A DNA stretch of 64,000 nucleotides, taken from the NCBI GenBank assembly GCA_964442255.1, contig CAYTYC010000004.1, positions 1,416 through 65,415 of the forward strand, read 5' to 3'. This stretch comes from an uncultured archaeon. GTDB taxonomy: Archaea; Iainarchaeota; Iainarchaeia; Iainarchaeales; 1-14-0-10-31-34. The notes beneath the pieces were generated by a model, which worked only from the letters and a program-made list of their open reading frames with translations, did no database searches and was not told the origin of the DNA. Shown piece by piece: positions 25,535-59,962 of the stretch. Within the stretch, counting starts at the first letter, position 1, and each line of letters starts with the position of its first letter. A program made the position numbers and the translations under genes.

Positions 25535-25538
25535 TTTG

Positions 25539-25790: not shown

Positions 25791-25794
25791 TTTT

Positions 25795-39900: not shown

Positions 39901-41290
39901 GCACCTGCATTGTAATGTATCCTGAGCCTGGCCCGATAATGCAGTCCGGGTCATCCCCATCAACATAACCGTCCAAATCATCATCAACGCCGTTGTCGCA
40001 GATTTCTGTTCCCCCAACACAATCCGGGTCATCCAGGTCAATGTAGCCGTCGCCGTCATCGTCTTCGCCGTTGTCGCATATTTCTGTTTCATCTTCCGGG
40101 CAGTCCTCCCAGTCGTCAAAGTCCGTGTAGCCGTCTCCGTCGTCGTCCAAGCCGTTTCCGCATATTTCTATGCCCCGGCAGTCCTCGTCATCCAAATCCG
40201 TGTACCCGTCTTCGTCGTCGTCTATTCCGTTGTCGCAGATTGTCTCCTTGTCGGGCGTGTTTCCCGGGTCTTTGGCAGTGCGCATGTAAATTGTTTCAGT
40301 GGCTGTCTGCTCCGCCCTCACAACAACCTGCACAAGCTCCGGCAAATAGGCTGGAGTGTCCTCCGGGTCTGTGACGCTCACGTAATAGCTTCCCGCCGGA
40401 ATGCCGTCAAACACGTATTCCCCGTACATCGTGTAGCCGAACCTTCCTGTTGAAAGGTAAACGCTTTCCATGAGTTCAACTTTCAGCCCGTCAATTTCTT
40501 CCCCTTCGTAAACAGCCCTTACCACCAGTTTTCCTGATGATTCTTCCGGGGCGTCTGCCTGCAGTTCAATTATTTCCGGGTCTCCCCTTGCGGAATGTGA
40601 AAGCACGGGGTTAAATCCTGCTCCTTCCACGCTTACGAGAAGCGTTCCGCAGTCTTTTGGCTCCGATACAATGGTTTTTCCGGTGTAAACTGTCGTCCTT
40701 TCGGGGGCAGGGCTTGCCCCTGCTTTGGTGCACTGGAACCTTAAAATAAGTTCTTCGCCTGAAAGCAGTTTTCCTGTTTCCTTGTCAACCAATTGGATTG
40801 TTCTTCTTATTGGCGCGTCTTTGCCTTCTTCTGTTTTAAGCGTTATTTCCACAGGCAGTTCCATGTCCGGGGAAATGAAAATCGTTCGGGCGAGTTTTTC
40901 GTATCCTTTGTGCTCTATGCTCAAGTCAATTAATGCGCCTTCGTTTGCTTCCAGTTCCGGGCTTAATCCTAAGGCATTTGTTTTTCCCGCTTCAAGCGTT
41001 GTTCCGTCCGCGCTTAAATTGAGTTCAACTCCTGAAAGCGGGGTGTTCGTGCTTTTGTCCAGCACCTTGAGCTGGAATGAAACCTTTTGCGGGGAAATTA
41101 TTTCCGGGAACGCCAGAAAAGTTATTCCAAGGAATAGCAGCAAAACAATTATTATGAGGAAAAGCAGGAAAGAGGGAATTACTTTGTCTATTTTGTCCAC
41201 GAGCCGGTATACTGGTATTTTTTCGTTTATTTTGTCGAGAAAATTGTACCATTTTTCTTCCAAGCCGTAGTAGGCTTCCTTTAGGCCCAT
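33986..41290 (-). CDS. Giant surface protein 2 (2434 aa): the same N-module plus TM, CarboxypepD_reg-like repeats, four tandem Asp-rich Ca-binding repeats, a Ser/Thr linker, and a C-terminal head paralogous to giant 1
   Basis: N-terminus MGLKEAYYGLEEKWYNFLDKINEKIPVYRLVDKIDKVIPSFLLF. Four tandem (E)ICDNGxDDDxDGYxDxDDxDC repeats. A TSSTTSTTTGETSTGSPDTKSTEE linker is followed by a hydrophobic Gly-rich segment. The C-terminal head carries YIYCDATQLS and YLIRDGYSADFQKDF. Confidence 0.85.
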   Translation of the reverse strand: MGLKEAYYGLEEKWYNFLDKINEKIPVYRLVDKIDKVIPSFLLFLIIIVLLLFLGITFLAFPEIISPQKVSFQLKVLDKSTNTPLSGVELNLSADGTTLEAGKTNALGLSPELEANEGALIDLSIEHKGYEKLARTIFISPDMELPVEITLKTEEGKDAPIRRTIQLVDKETGKLLSGEELILRFQCTKAGASPAPERTTVYTGKTIVSEPKDCGTLLVSVEGAGFNPVLSHSARGDPEIIELQADAPEESSGKLVVRAVYEGEEIDGLKVELMESVYLSTGRFGYTMYGEYVFDGIPAGSYYVSVTDPEDTPAYLPELVQVVVRAEQTATETIYMRTAKDPGNTPDKETICDNGIDDDEDGYTDLDDEDCRGIEICGNGLDDDGDGYTDFDDWEDCPEDETEICDNGEDDDGDGYIDLDDPDCVGGTEICDNGVDDDLDGYVDGDDPDCIIGPGSGYITMQVQETGINKPIDGALVSLYNDAGALIDQRTTEKDKLAKVKFLVEDTGREYGVKVEHEDYLIYDDWPFKVSDGIYVLKLTRYIPRVNGADLKVRVIDEGTGKPVIGALVSLFDEEQKPVTAKRQRVDADSNGYVTFKGIQDGTYMAYASYGNLHGWSDKGYFTGRIAEDFELVVAMVLPEGAIRVKVKDKEGEAIANAFVTFYDSADDSELETVPTNAEGVSLYTTKAGKTVYFKVTMDGYATYRGEKIGVIPNSLEGREIILDRLVVATEDKIVMEFLGLTIDDRVVEDVLAPGESYYAEFKLKVPENQSFDEIGLHFRAGKEAYMENDVVKIKTVNSTADKVMLFTKYTGNNVEEDLRSVTSEDAKWANIVWTNAGRGVTEGTYFAKIKIQVKDFASLSDTVNLYYRAWGKTGGKTVRDPAPGVVEEELYAQAKEKIYSIGEGDTLCDDRFCFNATIIDLGERLTEDVGEEPYNAELLKEYKFVFSLVNNERERIYTNATLRIDNPGEDLGFGEYSITKPNNQPVRGNAEKKSRLPLIELPDFSPNKSISGSLTFTTLNPVETGLRIRLVEQRGEGGKVVYFNENWIEIDAAKNLGINVEPETIASGIKETITVEVKDLETGLEEGDVFVKAMDKFGTILDEGFTSSQLPDRGNIDLVIPPQEPGARLKIKAEKQGFNPVEHSVWVDGNIVSFSPKKMSSSLNTAKKPSSIELLELESLVQFDLEVRSIGVTGNFRGILDTETMNNSLERNYAGGILRSGDSKEFEVGVMLSNEGRTLSNRFQMKGQVEVRLGSNESEWVFEIPLIVSVGIGGEVDEPGCLNVTQNAWSGRTEGDPITLSLEVQNNCTVDGRPVMIQDLEAKVEWESNQIGVFSFTAADTPMELRNNYYRKLVGRIEPEAKIVGFLEFTPLGGMQGTAKARVDFRARNEVEGEDEWVEDFLSTSITVNNILDCVSVSKNYLKIPVEGTDSFLVKTKECGGETRFEFESPLHLSRQEVKLPATGEQEVTVFHDSGKFPGLYPIYVKVTGAGEVSGREIQRIDAELEGIGCIRLSKYFLDIYDDPDVMYDGYDTLTVQNYCHSKEVELEFDVKSIWKAMKDAIIPTLIGVGVHIATDFIQNKLNGTKKPREADLGKNGKEKVVEPDSRGRTPINLDLPEIPESNPSLTNPNLGLTVGETDPDKHGPPGGTSSTTSTTTGETSTGSPDTKSTEEGAAISGGDSGSEETESGESPPESGVAPKESPQPTGLVSATVQPTGMFVTELLSGIPLVGNILGALPGFSTGLGPIWTGIIGFATNTVINYINQEPVIINSLQADVEIQDEWELFKQVLPEKIVEDGITVERGDTKASFVGENTVEGGETFEEIELKFINTGNLKQEDPLRPLFRVLEVTGTQFFYKHKDNAKLDEDDLEDFEEMSAENRLDEFANRLVDRTEKVDKYFNLEFLSYDESDIPVHGQGYGECRLGNKTGSTGANAVPRVKFDWRWDLHNAETGDYRCDEGNEDYIYCDATQLSTEILKKINKLVGENGVLETMGAYCPSGAICGAYSTLTLPKFFEEMEKSGEVLDPIQKEKARQLYKFNAYLIRDGYSADFQKDFHSYATTSAFFEAPEFYMGNEGLGAYFNNPSLFEFDYAAKMLSVNAPIRKPGLYEVEIEISFNDESYTLFVGGQPNAKITVHLNQKADAWPPSPFYYLPFNGRIGMDNDRIGYGVNFSGEEININNTGDVVHTSSAQGQAQVHTLETKVEDSLKALNMDKRGVILEVKRNNDELTSMDFSPSKATSVVMEIEDTGTESVYAFYTATVDGEAQNLGDNGLTKWVGLPEGENACRDFGDAPNDLFEVPDTHGSSTPLSRDLYEYGFHWNDPVKYGKVFMQTIFFTPQEAVSKLSVARKSGTLKFHTAVEENITGATTLSGFRSDEVKTVEDLFDLMEQEKVCLTDTKSEVLAEFWWNPETVAEPLEPVIQKLNIEETCIQ

Positions 41291-41473: not shown

Positions 41474-44400
41474 CTATTTGCTGGCTTCCAGCTTTGCCAG
41501 CAAAGCCTTAAGCTCTGTGCTCACTTTTTCCTTGTTCCAGCTCAGCTCAAGGCCTGTGGCGTATCCGTCCCTTACGTCCAGCGGCTCAAAGCAAACCAGC
41601 TCGTTTTTAATCCTGTCAATCATTGCCTTGATTGTTTCCCCTGAAAGGTTTGCATTGCTTAAAACGGCTTCTTTTGGCTGGGTTCCGCCCGGGTGCGTGA
41701 TTTCGCGCGGGTTTTTGTTGAAGAAGTCGACAATGCTTGCTTCTGCCCTGCCCTGCGAGCACAGCACGGAAAACTTAAGCTGCCCTTTCATTGGCACAAA
41801 GGCAAGCGCCAAAAGCCCGGTTGTGCCTGTGCTTTTCTCCGTGCTTATTACAACACTGTGCCTTTCCTCTGTTGCGCCTGCGCAGAGCTCCGCCATGTTC
41901 CTTATCCTGTCCTCGAACTGGCCTTCCGCGCTCAGCCATTCAACCATTGGCTCCAGTTCCTCGCCCACTTTGTGGCCGGAGATGTCCGTTATCTCGTAGT
42001 AGAATCCTTTTCCTTTTTCCCCTCCTTCCAGTTCAGCCTTAATGTTCACGGGATTTGAGGGCGTGTACTTAATTAGCCCGCTTCCGCCTGTTCCGCCGTA
42101 TTTTTCAATCCTTAAAAGCGTTCCTGTTTTTGTTTCTTCAAGGCTTTGCGGGAACTCAACCCTGAAGTGCATCACTCCGCCCACACCGGTCTTTAATGGG
42201 GCTCCGTCCATAAGCTCCACTTCCGGGGCTCCGCTGTCAGCGTTGTCTGTGAAGACGCCGTAATCGTATATTGTGACAGGCAAGATGGAGCTTGCGGGCG
42301 TTGAGCTGAATCTTCCGTCAACCTTTCCGTCGAACGGCATTTCAAACAGGAAGTTTTTCACATATTCCTCCATTCCTTCAATGTCTTTCAGCAAGTTCAG
42401 CCTCTCGAAGGTAATCTCAAACTTTCTTTTGTCTTCTTCCGCCTTTCCCCAAAGGTAGTTTACGTTCACCTTGTATTCGCCTGCGTTGATTTCTTTTGGG
42501 GGAAGTTTTTCAACGTTTTTTCCGTTAAGCGTTGTATCTGGCGCACCAAGCCCGCCGATGTTCTTGTATGTTGACGCAAAGTCCCCGAACAATGATTTTG
42601 TGTAAGCTTCGTGCATTAAGTAGGAGTTAACCGTAATGTTTTCGTTGTAGAGCCTGTCTATTTCGTCTGTTGTTATCCCTGAAACCTTTTTCCCTTTCTT
42701 GATTATCTCGTTTTTCATTTCCTCCTCTTTTTCCCCGAAATCCTTGTTCCTTGTGCCGAGCTTGAATGAGGTTCCCTTGTAAAGCTTTTGCAGGAACTGG
42801 GCGGCAATTGGCGTGTCAATGGCTTTGGCTATCTTGCCGTCGTCTTCCACAATTATTGCAATCCTGCATACGGTTGCGTTTTCTTTAAGCGCGTCGCAGC
42901 ACCCGCTTGGCGGATAGGTCGTGGTCGGGGTGCTGCGCCAGTCCGCGCATGCCGCCCTGTCATCTTCCATTGCATTTTCAAGCCTGTCATGCATTGCCTT
43001 GAATTCGTTGAATGTGAGCACGTAATATTTTCCGGTTATCTGCTCTGCCCCAAGGTCTTTCAATGTTTTAATTTCATCTCCGGTGAAGCCTTTGGTGTTC
43101 ACTTCAGCCACTATGTCCAGATGGTCAACTGCCGGCGCGCTTTTCATTTCGCTTAAAAGCCTTGAAGCCCTTTCAACAGTGGCGTCTGCCTCTTCCGGCA
43201 TGTCCCCTGCGGTTGCAAGCACTGCTTCCGCGAATTCTGTGTCCAGCACGCCCTCAAGTTCAGACGGCCTCAGGGGTTTTGGCTGCCTTAGGATACGCCC
43301 TGTTTCACCGTCCAAAAAGAACGCCAACTGTGTCCTTCCGCCTTCAGGGTCGTCGTCGGTTATTGCCTTCTGTGCCGCCGCAAACCTGTACAAATTGTTT
43401 GAGTTTTTTTCGCAGACCTTTGTTTCGCTCCACTCATCCTCAATGCAGTCGTTGTTTTCAACCTTTTCCGTGAATTCCTTTATGGTTTTGGCTTTCTGGT
43501 CAAGCGAAACCGCGTACTGCGCCCCGTCGCAGAACATTGCGTTTTCGTTTACCGAACTGTCGCAGATATTTTTGCCCAGCGTCTCCAAGTCCCCGTAATC
43601 CCATTCAAACAACAGCCTGTCAAAGCCGTATTTTGTTATTACCCCGCTTCCTGTTTCAGCGCCCTCCTTTTCACAGCCTGCAATTTTTTCCCTGAGCTCC
43701 TGCTTCAGCAGCTCTATTTTTGCTTGGCGTTCTTCCGGTGTAAGCCCTCCAAGCTCTTCTTCAACTGTTTCCCTCACTTTTTCTTTCTCTTCTTCGGGAA
43801 GCTCGCATTCCTTCAGTTTTTTCATTATTTCATCAGCTTTTCCTTCAATTTCGTCCAAACGTTTATTTGCTTCGTCAAGCACTCTCTCATAACAGTCCTG
43901 TGTTTTGTCTTCCCATTCGCCTGGCCCTTCCCCGTCGCCTTTCACGTTTACCTTGAACGGCATAATCACGTCCGCAACCCTTGCCGGGTTTGGCCTTATG
44001 ACTTTCACGTGCAGGCTGCCCTCAAACCCCACCATGTCTCCCTTCGTTTTCCCGAGCTTTTTCACCATGAGCTCAATGTTTTTTCCGCCGTCCACTTCCT
44101 CAAATGAAACCCTTATGTTGTCTTTTTCAAACGCCTTTTGCCCCCAAATCCGCAGCCTGTCCTGTTGCCCGCATTTTTCTGCGTCCCTTTCGGTTATCAG
44201 CACCGGTGGAGAGGGCTTCCACTTGAATGTGCCCCCGTCAAAGTAGTACTCGTCTATTGTGAATCCGAGCTCGAATTCAAACCGGTTCCTGATGCATTCT
44301 TCCGGGGAAACATCCGGGTTTCCGTAGTAAACCCTTCCGCTCAGCCCTGAAGCCAGTTCCCATAAGTCTTCCACCGTAATCCTGAACGGCACGTAATCCT

Positions 44401-47400
44401 CAAACCCGTAGCGGTTTGTGAAGTAAACCTTGAGCATTGACGGAGTCCACGCCCTGTAATAAAGGTCGGATAACTCCCACCTGAACCTTAAAAGCTTTCC
44501 AATTGGGTCCACGTTGTCTTTAATGGATTTTTCCACGCTTTTCTGGTACTGCGTGGGGTCCTGAACTTTTATCAGGCTGAAAACCATTTCTTCGGTTGCC
44601 TGCCCGTTTGGCCCGATTTTTGTTCTCGGGGGCTCGTCTATTATCACGTTGTCCGCAATCAAGTACTCCTGAATTGTGGTCGGCGTTCTCCCTGCTGCAG
44701 AGACCCCTGCGCCTTCCCTGTAGCCGCGGTCGCTTAAATTGGATTCAAAGAAGCTCAAGCCTTCCACTTTAATTGGCCTGTCCCTCTTTAAAATAACCCC
44801 CTGGTTGAAGCACGTGTTTGTGATTATTCCCTGCTGCGGTTTCGGGAAAAGGCTGTTGAACTGAAAGGTTCTCCTGTTCAAGGTGATGCAGTCCGAGTAA
44901 TCCCGTATGTATTCTGACTGCACAAGGTAAAGCAGTGTGTCAATGTCTTTCTTGGTTTCCTCCGATGCAGCAAGCCCTGCCCTTATGTGCACAGGGTATT
45001 CCCCGAAAAAGTAAGCGGGCTGGACAGTGAATTCCGTTTCCTCTTTTGGCTCAAGCGTCCCTGAATCCGGGCTGACCATTAAATTTTCTGAATCCACTTC
45101 AATATCCACTGTTGCCCCGCAGTTGTTTATTGCCTTGAATTTTCCCTGGTTTGCCATTCCGTATCCGTGTAATCCGCTGTAAGCCGGATCCATGTATCCG
45201 CCGCCGTAAAAGGGCTGCTGGTATCCCCCGTAAGGGAAGCTTAACTGGTTCCAGTTGTTGTACAAAATGTCGCTGCTTCTTCCCGCGCTTCCAATTGAGG
45301 TGTTAGCGTAATAGGAGCTGGAATACCAGTCCGGGTTGTCCATGTTGCTTAACCTGTAAAAGTTGTTGTAAGAGTTTGGGTTCTGGTAGTATGCGCCTGT
45401 TGAAAGCGGATTGTATCCAAAATAGTTTTGGTGCATTCCGTAACCCAAATTGTATGGGCCGAATTCCAGCCTCTGCGAACCGATGGCGCGGATTTCCATG
45501 CATTCAAGTATGTCGTTTATTGAAACCTCTGCCTCAATCTCAGCCTTTATTTCCTGCAATCCCTGTTCTGTGGGGTTTGTTGCCTGCACAATAAGCCTTG
45601 CGGTTCCCTTTGCGCTCTTCAATACATCCGGGTCAAATGTGAAAGCAAGGCTTGTTTCACTGTTCGTGGGCAGTGACTCCGAGAGCCCCCTGAACTTTGA
45701 GGTTAAGTCAACGCGCCGGCTTCCCTGAATGTCCGCGTCCACGCTGAACTCTCCCACAGGGTTTTCGTTCCATAAAACTTTTGCCTGCAGGTTTTTGAGT
45801 GCAATGCTTTTTCCGTCAACAGAGCAGTTGTTTATGAGCACAATGCTTTGCCCCACTGTTTCTTTTCCGGTTAAAATATTCCATTTTTCTTTTGTCAGCA
45901 CCAAACACTCCAAATCATCCACTTCTCCCCCAAGGCCGATGAACACTTCAATTGGAACCTCTATGCTGAACGATTTTTCTGTTTCCTGGTTTGCAAGGTA
46001 TGCGAGGATTTTTCCTTTAACAGTCCTAACCTCATTTAACGCCTTTCCTTTCGGGCTTAAGCTCAACCCGAAAGCAATGCTGTAATCCAGGCCTTTCACT
46101 ATTTCAGCCCCAACGTATTGCTCCAACAGCCTGAACCTCAAATAGTCGGTGAAGTCCCCGGAAAACTCGATGGCTTCAATTGTCAGCGGCAAGTCCGTGA
46201 GGCTTCTCACCACAACATCCCTTTGCACTTCAAAGTCTTCAACCACGCTCAGGCTTTCCGTTATCTCTTCCGGAGTGAAGCTTAAAACATTCGGCTCCAG
46301 CTTAACAGTTTGCTCCACTGTTTTGTATCCGTTTTTTTCCGCTTTTATTGTAAGTTCCGCGCCGGGCTCAAGCCTTTCCAGCGTTAAAGTGTAAACGCCT
46401 TCACTGTCGCTTACTCCGCTGTAAGCCATTTCCCCGTTCACCTTGATGTCCACCCTCACCCCGGGAATCCCTTTTCCGCCGCTGTCCGTGAAGCGCAGGA
46501 TTACGTTGTTTTTAATGAACGGGACAACCATTAAGGGCAGCATTTCCAGTTCCATTTCCTTTACCGCTTCAACCTTTACCCTGAAGTTTTTGGAGAAAAC
46601 CCTGTTTTCCCCTCCCGCCCCGCTCGCAACAATCTGGAAGTTCAGGTTGTTTGTCCCTTCCTTCATGGTTTTAAAGTTTACCCATCCCTGCACGGTGTCG
46701 CCTTTGCTTATGTTCCCCATTGGAGCTGTTAGCTCAAACCTGTCCGCGTTTCCCGCGCTTTTCGCTGAGGTGACGTCTATGACCTCGTATTCCCCGAACT
46801 TCAGCCCCTCGTTTTCGGATTTTATTTCCAGTTTTGCGTCCGGGCTGTATTCTTCCCCCACGCTTGTCAGGCTGAATTTTAGCCGGTAGTTTCCGCTTAT
46901 TTCCGCGGGATAGCTTTCCACAACCGTTGTTTCGCTTCCTGTTTCAATGTTTGCCATGGTGAAGCTTGAGCAAAAGCTTTTTCCGCACAAATTGCTTGGG
47001 CCTAAAGTGTAAACCTCTGTTTTAACCCTTGCATAAAGCGCCTGTTTTTCGGAGTTTTCCTTTGAGGCGCCCAAAACAGAGTCCGACGGAAAGCGGAGAA
47101 CGCTTTCCCTTTCTCCCCACGCGCGGTAATGGATTTCAAGCTTTTCCCCGCTTCTTGCCGCGTCCCTTACCTGTATTTCCGCTTCAATCTCCATTATTCC
47201 TTCATCCACGTCCATCCACTTGATGTTAGCCCATTTCGCGCTTCCGCTTGTCGTGTGCTGGCTGTCAACCGCATGCCCTTTTGGGGGATTGTATGAAGTG
47301 CCTTTCAGGATTACTGCGTCCGATGCCGTGGCGCTTTTAATGTGCAGGGAATCCTTTTCGATTATGTTGTTTGTGTTGTCCGCGCTTTTTCCTGTGCGGA

Positions 47401-49336
47401 GGTGCACGCCCGCTTCATTGAACCCCGAGCCCTTTGGAACCCTTAACTCGAGTTTTGCGGTGTATTTTCCCCCGGCATCCAGGAAATCCTCAGCCTGCAG
47501 GTTGCCTAACCACAATCCTTTCCACACGGCCTCAAACCTTTCAACCGCGCCGCTTAAAATTATTTCCTTTTCCATTACCGCGTCGTCCACCGCCTTGAAG
47601 GGCAGTGTCCTGTATGTTACGTATTCGTCTCCGCCAACCAAAAGGTAAACCGTTTTGTCCGCCCTTATGGAAGTGATTTCCTTTTTTCCGGTGGAGTCTG
47701 TCACTCCCCTCAAATTTGACAGTTCTTCGTCCGTGGAAGCGTCAAACACTTTTACTGTGACTCCCTGCAGCGCTGTTCCGGACTCGTTTTTCACGTTCAC
47801 TCTCACTGTTCCGCGGCCGATGCTTAACTGCAGAGTAACCTGTTTTACTTCCCTTTCCCTGAGGCTTACTTCTTTGTTGTTTCCCTGAAAGCCGGGTTTT
47901 TCCGCGTACACGATGTATGCGCCCGGCTGCACGCCCTCAAACCTGGCTGTTCCGTCAAAGCCTGTTGTAAGGACTTCCCCGACCAACGCGAATTCGTCCG
48001 CGGTTTTAAGCATTACCTTCACGTTTTCAACGGCTTCACCCTCTTCGTCCACCACCTTGGCCTCGATTGCCTGCTTAACCCCTTCCGGAACCGGCGTCAG
48101 TTCAACTGTAACTTCATCGTATACTTTTAGCCCGGCCAGGGTTTCCTTGTAGTAGCCGATTGCGTCAATGCTTGCATTGAATTCCTTGTCGTCCGCAACC
48201 GGAAATTCAACGGATCCCAAGGAATTAGTGTAGCGTTCGGTGAATATTCCGTCCCCGCTTTCAAATATTACTTCCGCCCTTTCAATTGCTTTCCCTGTTT
48301 CGGCGTCCAGAACCCTTACAGTTATTTCGCCGTTTACTCCTGCCCCAAGCATTATTTTCGGGAAGTGCTGGTAAAGGTTTCCGACAACTATTTCAACGTA
48401 TTCCTGTCCTTCTTTTTCGGAGTTAAAGCTTGCGTAATCCTTTGCGTTGTACGCGAAAACCCAGTAGGTTCCCTGGGAAATGCCTTCAATGAAGCAGCCT
48501 CCGCTGTAGTCTGTTTCGCAGAACCCCACGGAAATGCTTCCCCCCCTTTTCCTCAGGTTAACCGTTATTCCTTCCAATGGGCTGTCGTTTTCGTCCACAA
48601 CGTAAAAGTCAATGCTTCCTTTTTCTTCCCGGATTTCTTCTTTCAGGTAAATTGCCGGATTTGAGTCCTCCAATCCATAAGAGCAGGTGCCTTCGCATTC
48701 AAAGCCCGCCGGCTTTGCTGTAATCTTTCCGCAGTCTTCGGGCACGTCTTCCAAAGTCATCTGCCCGTTTGTCGTGGAAAGCCTTTCAAAAAACCCTTCG
48801 TTTTGCGAGCACGAGAATTCCGCGGCAATATAGCCTGTGTAAAGGGTCTGCGTGTTTCCCTTGTAGACCCTGAAAACAATTGTTTTCAGGCCCACTGCCT
48901 TCAATTCCACCAGTGTTTCCGTTTCGCTTAACGTGACTGTTTTTTCGGAGTAGCCTGTTGCGCTTACCGTGGCTTTTGCCTGTTTTCCTGCTTCGGCTTC
49001 AAATTTGATTGTTCCTTCCGCGTTTGTTGCGCCGGATTCCTTCATTTTGCCTTCAACGTATAGCGTGACCTTTGCGCCGGAAACAGGGTCAGCGCTTTCG
49101 TCCACAACTTTTATGAGATAGCTTGCGTTGAATCCCGGCAAACCGAATCCGAAGAAAAGGAAATATATTCCCATTGCAATGAGAACCCACATTAAAATGA
49201 ATAAAGGAAAGCTTGGAATGTTGCGGGACTCAAAAACGTCTATGAGCTTGAATACAGGGATTCCTTTCTTGTCCAATGCATCCATTAATCCGTAGTATTT
49301 GTCTTCCAGCCCGCGGTAAAAGTCCTTCAAGCCCAT
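41474..49336 (-). CDS. Giant surface protein 3 (2620 aa): the same N-module plus TM, CarboxypepD_reg-like repeats, a Tyr/Gly/Asn-rich prion-like tract, and coiled segments
   Basis: N-terminus MGLKDFYRGLEDKYYGLMDALDKKGIPVFKLIDVFESRNIPSFPLF. ~100-aa tract GYGMHQNYFGYNPLSTGAYYQNPNSYNNFY..YGGYQQPFYGGGYMDPAYSGLHGYG. The C-terminal part is partly alignable with giants 1 and 2 (FCDGAQYAVS). Confidence 0.85.
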   Translation of the reverse strand: MGLKDFYRGLEDKYYGLMDALDKKGIPVFKLIDVFESRNIPSFPLFILMWVLIAMGIYFLFFGFGLPGFNASYLIKVVDESADPVSGAKVTLYVEGKMKESGATNAEGTIKFEAEAGKQAKATVSATGYSEKTVTLSETETLVELKAVGLKTIVFRVYKGNTQTLYTGYIAAEFSCSQNEGFFERLSTTNGQMTLEDVPEDCGKITAKPAGFECEGTCSYGLEDSNPAIYLKEEIREEKGSIDFYVVDENDSPLEGITVNLRKRGGSISVGFCETDYSGGCFIEGISQGTYWVFAYNAKDYASFNSEKEGQEYVEIVVGNLYQHFPKIMLGAGVNGEITVRVLDAETGKAIERAEVIFESGDGIFTERYTNSLGSVEFPVADDKEFNASIDAIGYYKETLAGLKVYDEVTVELTPVPEGVKQAIEAKVVDEEGEAVENVKVMLKTADEFALVGEVLTTGFDGTARFEGVQPGAYIVYAEKPGFQGNNKEVSLREREVKQVTLQLSIGRGTVRVNVKNESGTALQGVTVKVFDASTDEELSNLRGVTDSTGKKEITSIRADKTVYLLVGGDEYVTYRTLPFKAVDDAVMEKEIILSGAVERFEAVWKGLWLGNLQAEDFLDAGGKYTAKLELRVPKGSGFNEAGVHLRTGKSADNTNNIIEKDSLHIKSATASDAVILKGTSYNPPKGHAVDSQHTTSGSAKWANIKWMDVDEGIMEIEAEIQVRDAARSGEKLEIHYRAWGERESVLRFPSDSVLGASKENSEKQALYARVKTEVYTLGPSNLCGKSFCSSFTMANIETGSETTVVESYPAEISGNYRLKFSLTSVGEEYSPDAKLEIKSENEGLKFGEYEVIDVTSAKSAGNADRFELTAPMGNISKGDTVQGWVNFKTMKEGTNNLNFQIVASGAGGENRVFSKNFRVKVEAVKEMELEMLPLMVVPFIKNNVILRFTDSGGKGIPGVRVDIKVNGEMAYSGVSDSEGVYTLTLERLEPGAELTIKAEKNGYKTVEQTVKLEPNVLSFTPEEITESLSVVEDFEVQRDVVVRSLTDLPLTIEAIEFSGDFTDYLRFRLLEQYVGAEIVKGLDYSIAFGLSLSPKGKALNEVRTVKGKILAYLANQETEKSFSIEVPIEVFIGLGGEVDDLECLVLTKEKWNILTGKETVGQSIVLINNCSVDGKSIALKNLQAKVLWNENPVGEFSVDADIQGSRRVDLTSKFRGLSESLPTNSETSLAFTFDPDVLKSAKGTARLIVQATNPTEQGLQEIKAEIEAEVSINDILECMEIRAIGSQRLEFGPYNLGYGMHQNYFGYNPLSTGAYYQNPNSYNNFYRLSNMDNPDWYSSSYYANTSIGSAGRSSDILYNNWNQLSFPYGGYQQPFYGGGYMDPAYSGLHGYGMANQGKFKAINNCGATVDIEVDSENLMVSPDSGTLEPKEETEFTVQPAYFFGEYPVHIRAGLAASEETKKDIDTLLYLVQSEYIRDYSDCITLNRRTFQFNSLFPKPQQGIITNTCFNQGVILKRDRPIKVEGLSFFESNLSDRGYREGAGVSAAGRTPTTIQEYLIADNVIIDEPPRTKIGPNGQATEEMVFSLIKVQDPTQYQKSVEKSIKDNVDPIGKLLRFRWELSDLYYRAWTPSMLKVYFTNRYGFEDYVPFRITVEDLWELASGLSGRVYYGNPDVSPEECIRNRFEFELGFTIDEYYFDGGTFKWKPSPPVLITERDAEKCGQQDRLRIWGQKAFEKDNIRVSFEEVDGGKNIELMVKKLGKTKGDMVGFEGSLHVKVIRPNPARVADVIMPFKVNVKGDGEGPGEWEDKTQDCYERVLDEANKRLDEIEGKADEIMKKLKECELPEEEKEKVRETVEEELGGLTPEERQAKIELLKQELREKIAGCEKEGAETGSGVITKYGFDRLLFEWDYGDLETLGKNICDSSVNENAMFCDGAQYAVSLDQKAKTIKEFTEKVENNDCIEDEWSETKVCEKNSNNLYRFAAAQKAITDDDPEGGRTQLAFFLDGETGRILRQPKPLRPSELEGVLDTEFAEAVLATAGDMPEEADATVERASRLLSEMKSAPAVDHLDIVAEVNTKGFTGDEIKTLKDLGAEQITGKYYVLTFNEFKAMHDRLENAMEDDRAACADWRSTPTTTYPPSGCCDALKENATVCRIAIIVEDDGKIAKAIDTPIAAQFLQKLYKGTSFKLGTRNKDFGEKEEEMKNEIIKKGKKVSGITTDEIDRLYNENITVNSYLMHEAYTKSLFGDFASTYKNIGGLGAPDTTLNGKNVEKLPPKEINAGEYKVNVNYLWGKAEEDKRKFEITFERLNLLKDIEGMEEYVKNFLFEMPFDGKVDGRFSSTPASSILPVTIYDYGVFTDNADSGAPEVELMDGAPLKTGVGGVMHFRVEFPQSLEETKTGTLLRIEKYGGTGGSGLIKYTPSNPVNIKAELEGGEKGKGFYYEITDISGHKVGEELEPMVEWLSAEGQFEDRIRNMAELCAGATEERHSVVISTEKSTGTTGLLALAFVPMKGQLKFSVLCSQGRAEASIVDFFNKNPREITHPGGTQPKEAVLSNANLSGETIKAMIDRIKNELVCFEPLDVRDGYATGLELSWNKEKVSTELKALLAKLEASK

Positions 49337-49443: not shown

Positions 49444-51318
49444 TTAATTTGGGTTTTCGTTGGGTGAACAGCCTCCCGGGCCCATATCTCCTATGTTTGC
49501 AGTTTCAAATAGGGAATAACAGGTCCACCCTTGGTTCGCATTGCATGCGGCTGTCGGGTTGTCTTTTGCGTCTTTGTCTAATGCGCAGGTGCCTGTATCC
49601 ACCCTTGCATAATAGTTTGGGTTGAATGGCTCAAATGTGTCCTTAAGCCTTATGTTGTATGCTACCCCTGTTTCGGCTTTATTTTTGTTGACAATATATT
49701 TTGGGTTTTTTTCCACAAACCTGAGGTTAACGGTTATCCTGTCCAGCTCTTCGCAGAATGCCTTCGGCTGATTTGTGAACCCTGTGCACTTAAATTCCGT
49801 TATATTTGGGTGGGTTATTTTGTCGTCTTCAGTGAGGAAAACCCCGACATCCTTATTGTAGGGGGTCATCGGACAGCCTGCATTTGTTTTGCCGTAGGGG
49901 TAATTTATGTTAAGGTAGTTTCCTTGCGTGGAGGGGGCCTGGGCTAAACTTATTTCAGAAGTGCTGACACTGTTTCCAGCCTGCTTAATTACTTTTGAGG
50001 GGGTTTGGTCAGTGGAAATGCTTATGCCGTAAAGAGGGCAGTTTTCCAGATATTCGTTCACGCCTGCTGCAAGTATGTCCCCCCCATTTATTTCCGTTCC
50101 GTTTCTTCCAATTAAAATATATCCGTCATCCTTGTCCGCGTTAAGGTATTCTCCCGTGTTATAATTTTCCACCGCAAGGTTGCAAAGCCTTCGCACAACC
50201 ATTTGTTTGATTGCATCCTCGGTAAGCATTGTGTCTGGCTCAAGGTTTCCTTGCACTTGGCTGAAAGACGCCTTGTCGCCTGGAAAGTAATAAAGGAAAA
50301 AATTCCCCACAATATCGCACATTCCAAGCGCTTTTAGTTCCTGGGTGCATGTTATGCCTGCTTGCATTATCTCTTCTGAGGGCGTGGTGGCAAACCTTTG
50401 GTCTCCCGGGCAGTATGCTCCGCTGCCTATTTCCTTTTCACTTGAGCTCAGGTAAGGGTGTTCGCGCCACCTGCAGCTGTCTATATCGCACAAGCCTAAA
50501 CGCATTTCCTCAAGTTCATTGTGAATGCGCGGGGAAAAAATTCCGTAGTTTTGTTTCCAAAGCGTGCCGGTTTCCCTGTTGTGCTCTATTGCCAGCGCCC
50601 TTGCCTCCGCAAACGCCTTGAATATTCTTACAGGCACGTAGATGCGCAGGTTTGTTCTCGGCATTATCGGCTCTTCTATCACCCGGTTTGTGCGAGTGTT
50701 TGTTACCTTTATTTTTGGGAACGCGTAATAGTCTTCAGCGCTCAGGTTTCTGGGATTCAGGTTAATGTAAAAGGTCCCAATGCATTTTTTGGGGTCGCCG
50801 TCTTCGCATCCCACGACCTCAATGAAGCTTTCTTTTGATTTGAGCATTTTATTCAATACTTCTTGAACTTTTCCCCTTTCCGCCTGGGTTGTTCCGGTAA
50901 GCTCTATCTGGAAAACCCCCACCTGCCTTTTGTACTGGTATCCTTTCACCAGCTCTTGGCTGAGAAAATATGTTAACGCCTGGGTGCTTTCATCTTTTTC
51001 GTTTTTCAGGCCAAAAAAAAAGGTTCTCGTGAACTGTTCCACCAATTCATCCCATGTGAGTTCCTGGAACGCAAAGCTTGCCCCGTTTGTGCTGAGCCAG
51101 TCCTCTATTTCAAACCTGACCTGGTAGTTGAAGAGCTGGATTGCGTCCGCCCTTGTCAAGTCCACGATTGCCTGCATTTCGCTTTGCTCTTCAATGTCTG
51201 AAATCAGCGCAAGCTTGTCTGCCTCCGCTTTCACCATGCTTTGCACAACGACAACACTCAAAACAATCAGCACAAAAGCCACCAATGCGGTGAACAAGGT
51301 GAAGGCTTTTTCTTTCAT
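49444..51318 (-). CDS. Large (624 aa) pilin-like protein with an archaeal class III (prepilin) signal peptide; Cys-rich globular body
   Basis: N-terminus MKEKA|FTLFTALVAFVLIVLSVVVV: a K-A at -2/-1 followed by a ~20-aa hydrophobic stretch, as in PibD/FlaK substrates. At least 8 Cys pairs. Embedded between giants 3 and 4. Confidence 0.6.
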   Translation of the reverse strand: MKEKAFTLFTALVAFVLIVLSVVVVQSMVKAEADKLALISDIEEQSEMQAIVDLTRADAIQLFNYQVRFEIEDWLSTNGASFAFQELTWDELVEQFTRTFFFGLKNEKDESTQALTYFLSQELVKGYQYKRQVGVFQIELTGTTQAERGKVQEVLNKMLKSKESFIEVVGCEDGDPKKCIGTFYINLNPRNLSAEDYYAFPKIKVTNTRTNRVIEEPIMPRTNLRIYVPVRIFKAFAEARALAIEHNRETGTLWKQNYGIFSPRIHNELEEMRLGLCDIDSCRWREHPYLSSSEKEIGSGAYCPGDQRFATTPSEEIMQAGITCTQELKALGMCDIVGNFFLYYFPGDKASFSQVQGNLEPDTMLTEDAIKQMVVRRLCNLAVENYNTGEYLNADKDDGYILIGRNGTEINGGDILAAGVNEYLENCPLYGISISTDQTPSKVIKQAGNSVSTSEISLAQAPSTQGNYLNINYPYGKTNAGCPMTPYNKDVGVFLTEDDKITHPNITEFKCTGFTNQPKAFCEELDRITVNLRFVEKNPKYIVNKNKAETGVAYNIRLKDTFEPFNPNYYARVDTGTCALDKDAKDNPTAACNANQGWTCYSLFETANIGDMGPGGCSPNENPN

Positions 51319-51333
51319 CAGCTAAAACCTTTC

Positions 51334-54300
51334 CTAAGAGACTGCGCCTTCAATTGATTTGCCCTCGTTTTTGGCAATGCTGCCCATTTTGCTTAACACT
51401 GTTGTGGAGTATTCTATTGCGGCGTTTTTGATGATTTTGCATTTTTCTATTGCCCCTGTGCCCCCGTGGTATGCCCCTATCGCCAATGCAAGGGGGTCGT
51501 CGCAGCCCTTTATGTCATCTTGCTGCAGCAGGTGCTTCACAATATCTGTTCCGACTTCAATGTTTACGGTCTCATCAAACCACAATTCTTTTGGAATTGC
51601 CTTGCCTTTTCCTTTGTAGTTTACCCTTGCAGGAAATGTCTTAACTCCCGGAACTTCAATTATCATTGTGCCTGTGTCACGGTAGCCGTAAGTGTCTTCC
51701 CCGTCTTTTGCGTACTTTTTGACTGAAGGCAGGCTTGTGTCGTTGAACCAGTAAGGCATTATCTGCATTAACCCCGTTGCCCCTGTTTCCGTGTTTACCG
51801 CAAACCTGTTTCCGCTGCTTTCGGTTTCAATAATGCTTTTAATCAAGTCCTCGCTTACTCCCGCGGCCTTTGACGCGCTTTTGGTTTTCGCATCCTGGCT
51901 TGAGGTTGTCCTGTTTATTTCCATTTCCTTTGCTTCAAATTCGTTCCCGCACTTGTCCAGCCTGTTGCTTGTGCTTTGGATTTCGTCACTGCTTGTCACC
52001 AGCCAGAACTGCAGGCACTTGTCTTTTCCTTCCAGATGCCTTACCCCGTAAGTGAAGTTTTTCTGGAACTCGAATTCTTTGGCTGTAAGCTCAACCGGCA
52101 CTCCGTTTATGGTTTGCAGCCCGGTTGGTTCGCAGTATCCTCCCGGGCTTTGCACTCCTTCCGCGCCCCAATACCATTTGAATGCCTCGTATCCCGCGGC
52201 TTCTCCCGCCGCCAGGCACCCGAATCCGCGGATGAATCTTGAAAGGTTTGGGTGGTTTGCCCAGAGCCTTCTCCACCTGCTCACTTCCGCGGCTTCTCCC
52301 CGCACAATCCATTTCTTGCTTTTTCCGACCTTTTTTGCTACGTCTTCAAGCCCGTCTGCCGCTGTTGTGTAGTTCCTGTTTCCAACCTGGTCCGTGACTG
52401 TTTTCATGGACTTCCTGATGCTTTTTTCCCCGTCCATGTTTGTGTGGTCCAAAATTTCCTTGAGCTCGCTTGCCTCCCTGTTCAGGTTGCTTATCACCGC
52501 GTTCCTTGCGTCATCCACTGCAACCGTTCCAACCAAGTCCCCTTCCTTCAGCAAGCCTTTTTTTACCAGGTCGTCTACAACCCCTTGGTGGGCTCTTGAA
52601 GCGTTTTTAAGCCTTCCCGCTTCGTCCACCAGGTTGTCGTACTGGGTTTGCATTTGGGGGCTGATTGCCTGCCTCCCCCTCCCTTGGGTTAAGTTATCCA
52701 TCTGTGTTTTTAGGGCTGCTTCCTGTTTTTCAAGGGATTCAAGGCCTATTCCTGTGTTGTCAATCAGGGTGAATTTTCCCCCCGCATCCGCTGTTATATT
52801 CATGTACTGTCTTCCGGTTACCGGGTCGGTGAAACCGCCAAGCTTGGCGTTAATCCCTGACGCCACTTTTGCCCCGCCCTGCAGGCTTTCAAGCCTGCCT
52901 TTGATTGCGTCTTTGGCAAACTCTGACGGCGCCAGAACCTGGTCAACGCCAGGGCGAATTGTTTTCCATGCCTGCCTTGTGCCCCCTGTGGCCAGGCTGG
53001 TTGAAACCATGTCTTCAATGATTTCTTTTCCCGTGTCATCCAAATTTCCCACCAAAAAGTCAGGCAGCCAGGAGTTCCCTCCCTCGGCTTTAACCGCTTC
53101 ATCAAGTATGAGCTTTTCCTCCCCTTTAACGAAGTTAACCAAATCCTTTATCTTGCCCCACGTGAAGTCCACGATTTTGTCAAAGCTCAAGTCAACGTTC
53201 AAGTATTCTTTAATCAGGCCTACCGCTACAGGCGGCCCGCAGGTGAGCAGCAGGCAGTCCACAACCGCGCCCGGAATAAACCCCAGCTTTGTAATTACGG
53301 CGCACCCTCCGCAGCCCACAAAGCATCCTGCACCCCATGCGGCTATGGACGTCACCCTTTTGCTGCTCTCCGCCTTAATGAGTTCGCTTTTCGGGTCAGT
53401 TAATTTGTTTTTCCTTAACTGCGAGTACACGTCAGCCAAGTTTACCTTGTCGTCCCCGCCGTCCCACACAAGTGTCGCGTAATAAGGCTCTTCTCCCACA
53501 GGAGTCTTGTATGCTTCCTCCAAAAACTCTAATGGAGTCAAACCGCACAGCATTAAGTCTATTTCCCTGAATTCTTCCATTGAATAAGGTCCATGCAGGT
53601 CCTCTGCCTTCAATTTAATGCTTTTTTCGGTTGCCTCCTGGAAGTCCGCCCCTCCCCTGATGCACAACTGGAAGTGATAATAGTAGCGCTTGCTTGCCTT
53701 GTCAAACTTTGCCAAATTAACCGTAAAATCGCGGTCTGTTTCAGTCAGCCTGAATGCAGGCTTTTCGCCTTTCCTTTCATATTCCCAGACAATTTTTTCC
53801 CCTGTTTTGGCTTCCTCGCCTTCCTTCGGCGCCTCTGTTTTTTCCGCAGTTTTTGCAGTTGTCTTAACCTGTTTTGCGCTTGCATCCCACACTTCAATGT
53901 ACTCCAGCCCAGGAATTTTCGCGCTGTCTTCATCAAACACCAAGTCAAATTCCCCTGAGGAAAGGTTTGACAGCACTCCATTAACGCAGGTTTCCTGCAT
54001 TGAAACCTGCATGCTTCCCGGAACCTCCAAACGCGGAACAAATTCTTCAACCCTTTCTGCGCTGCTTACAACAAAAAAGCTTTCATCCCTTGAAATGCAC
54101 GCATCACCCAGCTTTGAATTCCATAGGTTTCCCAGAATTCTTGCGGTTTCCTCTATCAGCTTGTCTTCCCCGCCTTCAACGCTTTCCGAGGCTTCAACTG
54201 ATTTCCTGCTTACCGTGACATACACTTTTTTCGGGTTTTCAGCCGAAAAACCCGGCTTCACTTCAATCTTCATCAGCCCGTTGAAGGGCACTTCCCCCAA

Positions 54301-57300
54301 CTCCAGTTCAACCGTGTTTCTGCTTCCCCCCCCGCCGAGCCGGCCCTCGCTTTTTCCGAAAAGCTTTTCCGCAAACTTTTCCTCAAATTTTTTGGTTGAA
54401 GAATCTTTTCCGTCAACCATTGTCAGCCAGCTTTCGTATGCGGACTCTGAATTGTATTTTTTGTCCAAAGGCAAAAAGTTCGGGGCATTCTGCGCAACGC
54501 TCTTGCATTCAGGGGTTTCATCGGCGTCAACCAGCCTGAACACGACAACAATTGATTCGGTGTCCAGCCTGTCTCCTTCAACCCCCACCGCGCCTGTTGT
54601 CGTCAGCTTGTATCTTCCGCATCCCGCCAAATCCCCGGGAATGTAAATCCTGCTCAAAAGCCCGATTCCTGCAACCCCAAAATCGCCTTCCCCGTACCTT
54701 ACATCAAAGTTTTCAAACTCGCTTGACTTTAAATCGTCGATTTCTTTTTTCAGCATTTCCCTGCTCAAATTGTCGTGCGAAAGGAAAACCTCCAGGCTGT
54801 CTGCCTGAATGTTCATTGACTCAAACGTGCAGTAGCCCTGCCTTGGGTCGCAGCCCTGAACATTTAATGTGGTGTTTGCGAGTTCGGTTACCCTTCTCTT
54901 TGCCTGCACTATCTTGTCTTTTGCCTTCTTTGCGATGTAACCCGCCATTCCCTGCGCGTCACAGTATCCTTCATGGCAGTCTGTTGAAAGCTTGGGGAAG
55001 CTTATTTTTTTTGTTTCAGAGTCCCGGTCCTCGCATATTGGCACCTCTATTTCAGGCATTGCCCTGCATTTTCCGCCGGAACAGCTTGTCGCGCTTTCCC
55101 CCACCTTCAATGAAATGTTCACGGGCTCTGATTTAATGAGTTCGCGTGTCACCTGCCCTACTCCCAGAACGGAAACAGGCCTGCTTACGTCAATGCTTTC
55201 TGAAGGGTAAACAGTTAATTCGAAATCGTCCCTGCCTGTCTGGGGCGGCAGCACTTCCCCGTCCGGGTAAATTTCAATGTAATTGTTTCCAATGTACTTG
55301 GGCTCCATTTCCCCTATCACAACGGGTTCCTGGCAAAAGTTTTTGATGCTAACAAAGCGGGTGATTGCCTCAAACGACTTTTTTGTGTCTGTCTCAAAAT
55401 TCAATGGCTCCCCGGGAAGGGTTTGAAGGGAGAGGCAGTGCCAGTCCGACACATGGAAGTAAACCGGAACGCTCCAAAGGTTTGTGTAGTGCCTGCCCTC
55501 AATGTTTCCGTTTATAACAAGGTTTCCGAGATGGGTTGAGCTTTTTTCAGTGTTTGCTGTTGCCACAACGTATGCGGGGGGAATGGATTGCCCTTTTTTC
55601 AGCAAAGGAAACTCGTTCCTTGGCTCTATTTTGACGTCCACTCCCGGAATGTGCTGCTCCAATGCCATTGTAATCTCTGAAACATCCGCGTTTCCGCGGT
55701 TTGAAATGAACAGCATTGCCCTGCCTATCCCTGTTTTTTGCCTTTGGCTTTGAGTAATCCATATGTGCAGGTTGTCGGGCACAAACAACGCAATCTTTGG
55801 GTTCCATAAAATGATTTTCAGGGGAATGCTTTTACTTATCTGCGGGCTTTTAAAGAACACATCATAGTTGTACTGCTGCTGGAGGTCAAACATCGTGGGG
55901 AAAGTGCTCACCAGCTCCAAACTGTACTGGTGGGGTTTTCCGTCCGCCTCCAAACGGAAGGTTCCAGCGTAAACCTCAACCCCCGGCGCCTCTTTTCCTT
56001 TTGGAAGGGCTTCCGGGGAAAAATTCAATGGAACCCCGCAATTGTTTTTCATCAGGATGTCCAAAGTTTTCCGGTTTCCCTCCGCCCCGACCAGGTAAGC
56101 CTGGAGTTCGCTTGAGTCAAACTCCAAACAGCTTTCCTTGAGCCTTTGATTGTAGTTAACCTTTACCCTTGTTTTTGCGGCTACAACGTATTCCCCGTTC
56201 ACGAGCCCCGTGAATTCAACGTCTGCCTCGCCGTGCACTATTTTTTCCTCGTTTCCCGTGTATTCCGCGGTGAACCCAATTTTTCCTGTTTCCCTTGGGC
56301 CTAATTCCGCCGGGGGAAGCGCGCTTAAAATGAGTTCATCCGGCCAGTTTTTCGCGGGAACCACTTCAGCCGCAATCCCGCTCACCGGAAGGGTTAAGGT
56401 GTTCCTTATTGTTTCCTCAATTCTCACAACCTTTTCCCCGAAAGGCATGTTCAACAAAATTTTTTCCTCAATCTTTAATCCTTCTTTTGCCCCGACCATG
56501 AACCCTTTTTCCACGGGCCTGAATCCCGGTGCCTCAATTCTTGCGGCGTATTTTCCGGGTTCCAGTGAATTCTTGAACCTGTACACCCCGTCCCTTCCGT
56601 TTCCGGTTGAGCCGTCCCCAAGCATTTCCGCAGCGGTTTCCCCGTCAGCCGAAATTATCCGGATTTTCGCGTTTTCCACCGGCCTTCCAAGGGAATCCTT
56701 AAGCGTTATTTTGATTTCTTCTCCCGCATTCACGAAATCCTCCAGCTCAATGTCCAGTTCCGCTTCCCTGAACACAGCGAAAAACAATTCATCTTCAATG
56801 CCTTCGTTTCCTAATTTGGCTTCGCTTCTGATGAAGGCCTCCCCTTCCTTTATTCCCTTGAAATAGAATCTCGCGGTTTTAGGGGTTCCCCGTGAAAGCG
56901 AAATGTTGTTTGCGGTGAGCGCCTGCAAAGGGTTTTCGTTGTCCGCAAAATTGGATGCGCCTGAAAGGCTGTAGGAAGTGAAAACAACTTTTGGCACGGA
57001 GTCAGATGTTGAAACCCTCAAATTGACTGAAAGGTTTTCCGCTGCCACCATTTCCGCTTCAAGCGCGTACACTTCGCCCAAGCCCGCGGAAAACTCTTTT
57101 TCCCCGAACCTTCCGCCTTCTTTTGTCAAAAACATGTGGGTTATGCACAGTTTTTCCTTGCACAACGGCTCGGACTCAAACACGCTTACTTTTTCTGAAA
57201 TTGTTTCCGCATACAACGCGGATTTTTCCCTGCTTACTTTTTCGCTTCCCAGCACCTGGTCTTCGGGAGTCCGGGCAGTTAGGCCGTTGAATTCCGCCCA

Positions 57301-59647: not shown

Positions 59648-59962
59648 TTAAATTGTAATGCCGCTTTTCAGGGCTTCGCTTACAATGGAAACCTGCCTGC
59701 TCAATTTTTTGAATTCTTCCGGGGTGTAGCAGAGGAAGTCAACCGGATAATCTAAACGCCAGTGCCTGTGCAGGCCTTCTGCTCTTCCGAATTTTTTTCT
59801 CTTAAAATAAGGGGAAACAATTATTAGGTCTACATCGCTGTCTTTGCGGTGCCTTTTCCCTGCCCTTGAACCAAATAAAATGACCCTTTCCACTTTCCTT
59901 TTTTCAGATACCTCTTTTTTGAATTTTTCTATCCCTTTGATTAAAGCTTCTCTTTCGCCCAT
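59648..59962 (-). CDS. Nucleotidyltransferase (MNT) antitoxin-like protein
   Basis: ILFGSRAGKRHRKDSDVDLIIV matches the minimal nucleotidyltransferase motif G[SG]..x9-13 D.D; 104 aa. Confidence 0.7.
   Translation of the reverse strand: MGEREALIKGIEKFKKEVSEKRKVERVILFGSRAGKRHRKDSDVDLIIVSPYFKRKKFGRAEGLHRHWRLDYPVDFLCYTPEEFKKLSRQVSIVSEALKSGITI

Follow-up and report, generated by a model that had tools for sequence, protein, structure and literature searches.

The 624-aa protein described here is very likely a class III, pilin-like protein, and it serves as the founding example of an unannotated Iainarchaeota family whose gene lies between those of two giant proteins. Our best reading, towards which we lean somewhat, is that it is a minor pilin-like adaptor which is cut by a prepilin peptidase and works with the giants and a type IV filament machine. 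The window is the whole 64,000-nt stretch of DNA that was analyzed, and all coordinates refer to it.

Predicted Class III Leader of the Pilin-Like Protein

The features of the gene and its product are as follows:

49444..51318, reverse strand: pilin-like protein gene, ATG start, 624 aa
51304..51318, reverse strand: predicted class III leader MKEKA; the family-wide motif is [KR][GA]↓F after a leader of variable length
51244..51303, reverse strand: hydrophobic N-terminal segment of the predicted mature protein, F6-V25 (FTLFTALVAFVLIVLSVVVV), where conservation within the family is highest
51085..51312, reverse strand: predicted continuous alpha-1 helix, residues 3-78 (DSSP on the AlphaFold2 model, pLDDT 85-94)

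The N-terminus encoded by the open reading frame is MKEKAFTLFTALVAFVLIVLSVVVVQSM, which starts with MKEKA and continues with FTLFTALVAFVLIVLSVVVV. Cleavage is predicted between Ala5 (ending at nt 51304) and Phe6 (starting at nt 51303), which places K at −2 and A at −1 of the proposed site, followed by 20 residues that are uncharged and mostly hydrophobic. The protein carries 16 Cys (2.6%), every one beyond residue 171, at a density about 2.3 times that of the flanking giants, and has three N-glycosylation sequons. The original prediction had pointed to the K-A pair at −2/−1, a long hydrophobic N-terminal helix and a Cys-rich product of 624 aa; the open reading frame and its Cys count agree with this, as do the family-wide motif and the modelled helix described below.

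Since a relaxed motif scan of the window flagged multi-TM proteins as well, a K-A pair followed by a hydrophobic run in one sequence is weak evidence. We examined the family as a whole. A word-indexed search returned 44 homologs, all 44 from DPANN archaea (Diapherotrites/Iainarchaeota, with a few labelled Micrarchaeota), none of which had an informative name or any Pfam domain. When 1.84 billion representatives were searched with a profile, 252 clusters matched, 228 of them below 1e-10, and the family is small with a sharp boundary. Relatives were found in 122 genomes in a scan of GTDB species genomes, nearly all titled Candidatus Iainarchaeum, Diapherotrites or "archaeon". Mis-binning probably accounts for four family-bearing bins that have Falkowbacteria, Chloroflexi, Chloroflexota or Thaumarchaeota in their titles. 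Family members are annotated "hypothetical protein" everywhere.

An intact N-terminal motif is present in 145 of 172 family sequences, the other 27 being N-terminally truncated or mis-started calls (e.g., "MFTALV...") or having the close variant KGFNLFS. Among the 145, position −2 is K in 78 and R in 56 (K/R 134/145), and position −1 is G in 96 and A in 47 (G/A 143/145). The residues that follow are just as constrained, with F at +1 in 141, T (76) or N (64) at +2, L at +3 in 134, F at +4 in 140, and T (135) or S (9) at +5 (T/S 144/145); Asp or Glu is found at +5 in 0/145. The commonest leader length is 5 aa, and the extremes are 3 and more than 20 residues. In the family alignment A1, entropy is near zero over F6-L20, the best conserved part of the protein, with F6, F9, T10, A11, L12, L17, I18 and L20 close to 0. 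Judged from these aligned sequences, the motif at the family level is far beyond chance.

For archaeal class III signal peptidases, positions −2, −1 and +1 are decisive; a positively charged residue at −2 is typical of archaea, whose class III sequences often lack Glu at +5 (PMC3387779; PMC4371748). The family has what is expected of an archaeal class III leader, namely a charged −2, G/A at −1 and a hydrophobic stretch directly after (criteria in PMC3387779). Searches with known families were negative: the pilin-like protein matched 0 Pfam families at E ≤ 0.1, no model of a known archaeal pilin or archaellin family matched in Pfam or NCBIfam, and neither database gave a match to the bacterial N_methyl domain (G↓FTL[IL]E), the Glu of which at +5 is lacking here. 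The sole HMM signal for the protein is a sub-threshold NCBIfam match to the ComGF minor pilin over aa 3-44 (E = 0.0075, 16.5 bits against a cutoff of 80).

An ordinary Sec substrate could resemble a pilin superficially, being either cut by SPase I near residue 31 (VKA↓E) or left as an uncleaved signal anchor. Read as a Sec signal, MKEK would be the n-region and the hydrophobic stretch the h-region, residues −3 and −1 of the possible SPase I site are V and A, and no pilin HMM scored above threshold. It also fits this explanation that a search for prepilin peptidase candidates (GxGD(xK) motif with at least 3-4 TM helices) found none in the window or within 10 kb on either side in 91 loci. Prepilin peptidase genes are often unlinked to pilin loci. 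However, neither a Sec signal peptide nor a plain signal anchor needs an invariant G/A at the n/h boundary, and 20 of 44 sequences have Thr at −1 of the possible SPase I site. We consider a Sec origin improbable, and a class III leader is the reading we carry forward.

Predicted Structure

AlphaFold2 run with the family alignment gave confident models of the 624-aa window protein (pLDDT 86.3, pTM 0.84) and of a 355-aa homolog, P0027 (pLDDT 91.0, pTM 0.82). The continuous N-terminal helix of the window protein is matched by one spanning residues 3-76 in P0027, and in both models an alpha/beta head comes after this helix of ~75 residues. The models have the predicted architecture of a pilin, with ~20 hydrophobic residues opening a long alpha-1 helix and then a globular alpha/beta head. 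The two predictions agree with each other; this structural evidence is not strong alone, and the signal-peptide evidence adds weight to it.

Homologs range from 350 to 670 aa and contain a highly variable insertion. Compared with the short homologs, the long ones have an extra variable Cys-rich region of 200-270 residues without a recognizable fold. The last beta strands (consensus F.E....Y.VN......Y.I.L.D) are present in all homologs, including those of 355 aa, so the variable Cys-rich part seems to be inserted in the core fold. Foldseek found no significant match for the full model in the PDB, and querying the PDB sequences with the family profile gave 0 matches; the best structural matches of the protein are minor pilins.

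Giant Proteins and Gene Order

The pilin-like gene lies within a same-strand run of genes for giant proteins, with an archaeosortase-family gene and a divergent ATPase gene beyond them:

26596..33957, reverse strand: giant protein 4, 2453 aa, paralog of giant 3
33986..41290, reverse strand: giant protein 3, 2434 aa, paralog of giants 2 and 4
41474..49336, reverse strand: giant protein 2, 2620 aa, starting 107 nt downstream of the pilin-like stop
51334..59529, reverse strand: giant protein 1, 2731 aa, with an N-terminal TM anchor, Ig-like and CarboxypepD_reg repeats and a C-terminal SLT lytic transglycosylase domain
60340..60915, reverse strand: exosortase/archaeosortase-family membrane protein upstream of giant 1 (TIGR04178, 38.4 bits, cutoff 23)
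62450..64000, forward strand: type IV filament assembly ATPase (FlaI/GspE/TadA superfamily), N-terminal 516 aa only, running off the window end

Repeats in the giants are of the CarboxypepD_reg, Big_1 and SpaA-type Ig-like kinds. In counts drawn from 80 GTDB loci, a giant ORF on the same strand is immediately upstream of the pilin-like gene in 61 of the 63 loci with enough flank, and one is immediately downstream in 51 of 52. The flanking giants are 2300-3300 aa long; the upstream one measures 2400-3300 aa in most loci with a full flank, shorter values coming from ORFs cut by contig ends. The median gaps to them are 59 nt upstream and 139 nt downstream. The AR10 genome (CP010424) and three other contigs likewise have the pilin-like homolog between giant ORFs. 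We consider it likely that the pilin-like protein is a functional partner of the giants that flank it. In the window, 15 nt separate the giant 1 stop codon from the pilin-like ATG, and this gap contains an RBS-like GAAAGG. AT-rich TATA-like boxes precede giant 1 and giant 2. The arrangement suggests co-transcription of giant 1 with the pilin-like gene.

The N-termini of the giants led to the idea that they are class III substrates themselves. In giant 1, [KR]G immediately precedes the TM helix in every sequence (40/40), and a bolder, low-probability proposal is that giant 1 is itself cut by the prepilin peptidase and acts as a "giant pilin". We rejected the giants as class III substrates because position −1 before the TM helix is Asn in 37 of 54 giant 2 sequences and V/I in giants 3 and 4, and because the 43 residues preceding the helix make up a conserved domain in which a KG[IL]P motif occurs twice. 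The [KR]G of giant 1 is probably a structural motif and not a cleavage site.

Several other components of the island were set aside. Four small multi-TM proteins (24836..26483) and a weak DUF87/HerA-like ATPase (22496..23995) had no counterparts by tblastn within 10 kb on either side in 87 related loci, and the SLT domain was found in 2 of the 11 giant-1 C-termini tested; given these results, none of the three is conserved core. A T4SS/Ced-like (conjugation-like) system within the island was rejected since its candidate parts fall outside that core. The archaeosortase-family gene upstream of giant 1 occurs in 18 of 80 GTDB loci, plus loci L003-L007, L090 and L091. Neither the pilin-like protein nor the giants appear to be substrates of this archaeosortase, as none of these proteins has the C-terminal motif-TM-basic signal.

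Association with a Filament Operon

The FlaI/GspE-type ATPase that the original prediction placed 11 kb away is indeed there, starting 11.1 kb from the pilin-like start, with a Walker A motif (GSRGSGKT) at 63842 and a Pfam T2SSE match (E = 1.3e-7). Its best NCBIfam models are FlaI and TadA, and the bindosome BasE model also scores (3.6e-15). Diapherotrites orthologs are ~760 aa long with 62-72% identity, and for one of them (P0046) the best PDB matches are A. fulgidus GspE2, CpaF and FlaI. The ATPase gene is divergent from the archaeosortase-family gene and back to back with the giant-pilin-giant module in at least 10 genomes, the window included; this adjacency was seen directly in L005/L006, L004/L007, L011, L026, L027, L028, L061, L090, L091 (Ca. 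Iainarchaeum andersonii) and the window. Several further pairs probably share it, judging from contigs of equal length.

In all four genomes where the sequence reaches beyond the ATPase, the next gene encodes a 780-791-aa protein with weak T2SSF (FlaJ/TadC/PilC) matches, so that the FlaJ/TadC-like platform which the original prediction had proposed looking for is seen beside the ATPase in these relatives. The platform gene in these four genomes is followed by 5-7 small proteins that begin with G/A↓Q-type class III signals of the classical archaeal kind, for example MNSKGQEFSVFKLLISAVIA, RGQEEAPFELLIAVIV and KKGQAAITDALYFL. By synteny, the window genome would have its platform gene past the window end. 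The genomic association thus consists of the ATPase in the window and nine related genomes, with platform and small pilins in four. In AR10, the giant-pilin-giant module is not adjacent to an ATPase. From this exception, the giants appear to be obligatory partners, while linkage to the motor is frequent and not universal. The suggestion that the island works with a type-IV-filament-like machine is supported by this frequent adjacency, and we slightly favour assembly of the pilin-like protein by the adjacent machine.

The exception also fits a bindosome-like arrangement, the chief rival reading, in which the class III signal is cut by a prepilin peptidase and the protein is retained in the membrane, not built into an extended pilus. 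What stays linked to the gene throughout is the pair of giants (61/63 and 51/52), whereas the ATPase is not always adjacent, and the ATPase scores on the BasE model. The family and the adjacent G↓Q pilins have different hydrophobic N-termini, and large non-pilin class III proteins are described as widespread in archaea (10.64898/2026.04.22.720090; PMC4371748). The modelled head is a pilin-like fold, however, and not a binding-protein fold, and the filament operon adjoins the module in at least 10 genomes. In addition, the first 20 mature residues are almost wholly conserved, which suggests a specific helix-helix packing like that in filament cores. We regard the bindosome-like arrangement as rather unlikely, with a modest chance of being right.

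Within the 91 loci we found no second protein family with an FTLFTAL N-terminus that might be a cognate major pilin. It is conceivable that the pilin-like protein is itself the major, filament-forming subunit of a distinct thick fibre, given that its N-terminal helix is strongly conserved and that no nearby small protein has the same N-terminus. We consider this highly improbable: its relatives vary from 350 to 670 aa around a highly variable insertion, the neighbouring operon already supplies several small pilins, and its best structural matches are minor pilins. A minor, pilin-like adaptor is the reading we retain. The original prediction had favoured a tip adhesin or minor pilin over a major pilin, and of these the minor pilin-like adaptor is supported; a location at the tip is tentative.

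Comparison with Known Systems

Among the closest known systems are the minor pseudopilins GspI/GspK (EpsI, XcpV) at the tip of the bacterial T2SS, and the closest functional analogies are GspK in the T2SS tip complex and the PilY1/minor-pilin complex of type IVa pili. As with the GspK alpha domain, the variable region here is apparently inserted into the core fold. Sequence homology to GspI/GspK was not detected, nor was homology to T2SSK found at the sequence level. The family differs from GspI/GspK in its archaeal lineage, its alpha-1 helix of ~75 residues and its far larger Cys-rich insertion, and giants flank the gene in place of GspH/I/J genes.

Bacteria have modular type IV pilins, such as PilB/PilC of Streptococcus sanguinis (PMC8179133). 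These share with our family a pilin module joined to a large extra functional module in a minor subunit thought to functionalize the filament; unlike PilB/PilC, the extra region here has no recognizable fold, is apparently inserted within the pilin fold, and goes with an archaeal-type leader with K/R at −2. The likeness to class III solute-binding proteins and the bindosome (PMC4371748) lies in large (500-700 aa), non-canonical proteins with a dedicated ATPase/platform pair, whereas the head here is not a solute-binding fold and the genomic partners are two giant adhesin-like proteins. The PilY1 and minor-pilin priming complex (cited in PMC4858521) resembles our module in that a very large non-pilin adhesin is displayed via minor pilins with the genes side by side. 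The giants of our module lack a PilY1 domain and carry a TM anchor of their own at the N-terminus, and the likeness is one of concept.

The layout also fits the description of archaeal "System 2" loci (Makarova 2016; Sivabalasarma & Albers 2026, bioRxiv 10.64898/2026.04.22.720090) at the level of descriptive features. Those compared are a long ~760-aa ATPase (System 2 ATPases have an extended N-terminus), a single ~785-aa platform gene, several small pilins and large adhesin-like proteins. The System 2 survey describes such loci mainly in Euryarchaeota, and in the sections consulted it contains no description of the giant-pilin-giant module or the pilin-like family (10.64898/2026.04.22.720090). 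In Omnitrophota, giant surface proteins, some with SLT, are preceded by GspE/GspF homologs and small class III genes (West-Roberts et al. 2023, bioRxiv 10.1101/2023.11.21.568195). These are bacterial, however, their proteins are 10-30 times larger, and no pilin-like gene is reported between the giants; the Omnitrophota and Iainarchaeota arrangements are probably convergent.

Others have already recorded large class III proteins at archaeal type IV pilus loci, labelling them "minor pilin or adhesin" (PMC4858521), as well as class III solute-binding proteins (10.64898/2026.04.22.720090). The 2016 archaeal census does not mention DPANN, Diapherotrites or AR10, and in the literature searched we found no description of the pilin-like family or the giant-pilin-giant module. 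What we describe is a new family and a new locus arrangement, not a new principle.

Proposed Role

In the mechanism we propose, the preprotein would insert into the membrane by its N-terminal hydrophobic segment, and a PibD/FlaK-type class III signal peptidase would cut off the 5-residue leader (MKEKA↓F), so that the mature protein would begin with Phe. The mature protein would keep its very long alpha-1 helix, with the first ~20 residues in the membrane or the filament core, and the remainder would form a pilin-fold head outside the cell, carrying a large and variable insertion rich in disulfides. It may then act as a low-copy pilin-like subunit (minor, probably tip or priming) or as a short pseudopilus element, extracted and handled by the neighbouring FlaI-like ATPase and FlaJ/TadC-like platform. 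Through contact with both flanking giants, the protein would physically couple them to the filament machine and so contribute to a host or surface attachment apparatus.

A more far-reaching version, which we regard as speculative and unlikely, is that the giant-pilin-giant module and the divergent ATPase/platform/pilin operon together form an undescribed archaeal apparatus that displays or deploys giant adhesins or cell-wall-degrading proteins by means of a type IV filament machine, is used on bacterial hosts and has the pilin-like protein as its obligatory adaptor. If true, the pilin-like protein would correspond in archaea to the PilY1/minor-pilin tip complex, and Iainarchaeota would attach to and breach bacterial hosts, in keeping with the SLT murein lytic transglycosylase end of giant 1.

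Significance

DPANN archaea are thought to depend on cell-cell contact, and the molecules of contact are largely unknown; Iainarchaeota are often regarded as possibly free-living, and their lifestyle is unsettled. The family provides a concrete, lineage-wide handle on these questions, a three-gene module in 122 species-level genomes that is commonly linked to a filament operon. The family could join the detection models for pilins and type IV filaments, and the invariant motif K[GA]↓F[TN]LFTALV is a simple marker for such loci. If giant adhesins are indeed coupled to a filament motor, this would explain how such large proteins are positioned or deployed, and would parallel proposals for the giants next to T2SS-like loci in predatory Omnitrophota. 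The finding may bear on how Iainarchaeota contact other cells, and it is directly testable.

N-terminal regions of the giants and class III signals

59401..59529 (-), conserved N-terminal region of giant 1
49208..49336 (-), conserved N-terminal region of giant 2
41162..41290 (-), conserved N-terminal region of giant 3
33829..33957 (-), conserved N-terminal region of giant 4

All four giants in the window share an N-terminal region of ~43 aa, LEDKYY..D.LD.KG[IL]PVY..VD..E, followed by a single TM helix. Orthologs of giant 1 carry E-x-[KR]-G-[ILV]-P-x-F-P directly ahead of this helix, the G being present in 40 of 40, and at the position matching this invariant residue an Asn is found in orthologs of giant 2 (37/54). 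Set against the class III core, the region shows a formal likeness, with a very long leader.

In four related loci, the ATPase and platform genes of the filament operon are followed by a conserved series of 5–7 small proteins.

L006, 14800..18761, small-protein series
L007, 14780..18375, small-protein series
L090, 14658..18636, small-protein series
L091, 14637..19648, small-protein series

The majority bear class III signals of G/A|Q type, and one conserved member carries KGF[LI]GPIGDDLPSLIPL. Since the EppA-type peptidase of methanogens needs Gln at +1 (PMC4371748), two class III signal types may, judging from these sequences, coexist in the genomes of these relatives.

Genes surrounding the conserved module

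60340..60915 (-), exosortase/archaeosortase-family protein adjoining giant 1
59648..60294 (-), HEPN/minimal nucleotidyltransferase pair of toxin-antitoxin type
18507..18986 (-) and 21960..22466 (-), small CARDB/YtkA-like secreted proteins
22496..23995 (-), protein of 499 aa, weakly matching DUF87/HerA
24836..26483 (-), four small multi-TM proteins

The two CARDB/YtkA-like proteins, encoded away from giant 1, both end in VPEI[GS]AI, a TM helix and RKK, an arrangement resembling a C-terminal sorting signal of the kind an exosortase/archaeosortase-type enzyme would recognise; no C-terminal signal of this type is present in the giants or the pilin-like protein. The HEPN/nucleotidyltransferase pair is an insertion separating giant 1 from the archaeosortase gene, and a similar pair occupies the same place in L004/L007 in reversed orientation. 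Giant 4 is followed directly downstream by the 499-aa protein and the four multi-TM proteins. Across 87 related loci, the 10 kb on either side of the pilin gene yielded no homologs of these proteins, which probably have no connection with the conserved module.

Four contigs with this Iainarchaeota-type locus (L018, L024, L029 and L031) belong to deposited MAGs whose titles read Falkowbacteria, Chloroflexi/Chloroflexota and Thaumarchaeota; their placement there most likely reflects binning errors.

Elsewhere in the window, three further features were seen.

357..812 (-), Cys-rich ORF, 151 aa, 22 Cys (14.6%), with repeated C-x-C-containing modules
10090..11121 (+), 343-aa ORF with a LAGLIDADG_3 homing-endonuclease domain
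11084..11172 (-), tRNA-Ser gene

The first is possibly a secreted Cys-repeat protein or a portion of a longer gene. The LAGLIDADG_3 ORF terminates within the tRNA-Ser region, overlapping it on the opposite strand.

C-terminal domain of giant 1

51334..59529 (-), residues about 2551–2601 of giant 1, SLT (murein lytic transglycosylase) domain (PF01464, E=5.9e-12)

Because an SLT domain was found in only one of ten giant-1 C-termini of related genomes (L056), the C-terminal module of giant 1 is, on the sequences compared, variable. An SLT domain on a giant surface protein from an archaeon is a hint of activity against bacterial peptidoglycan.
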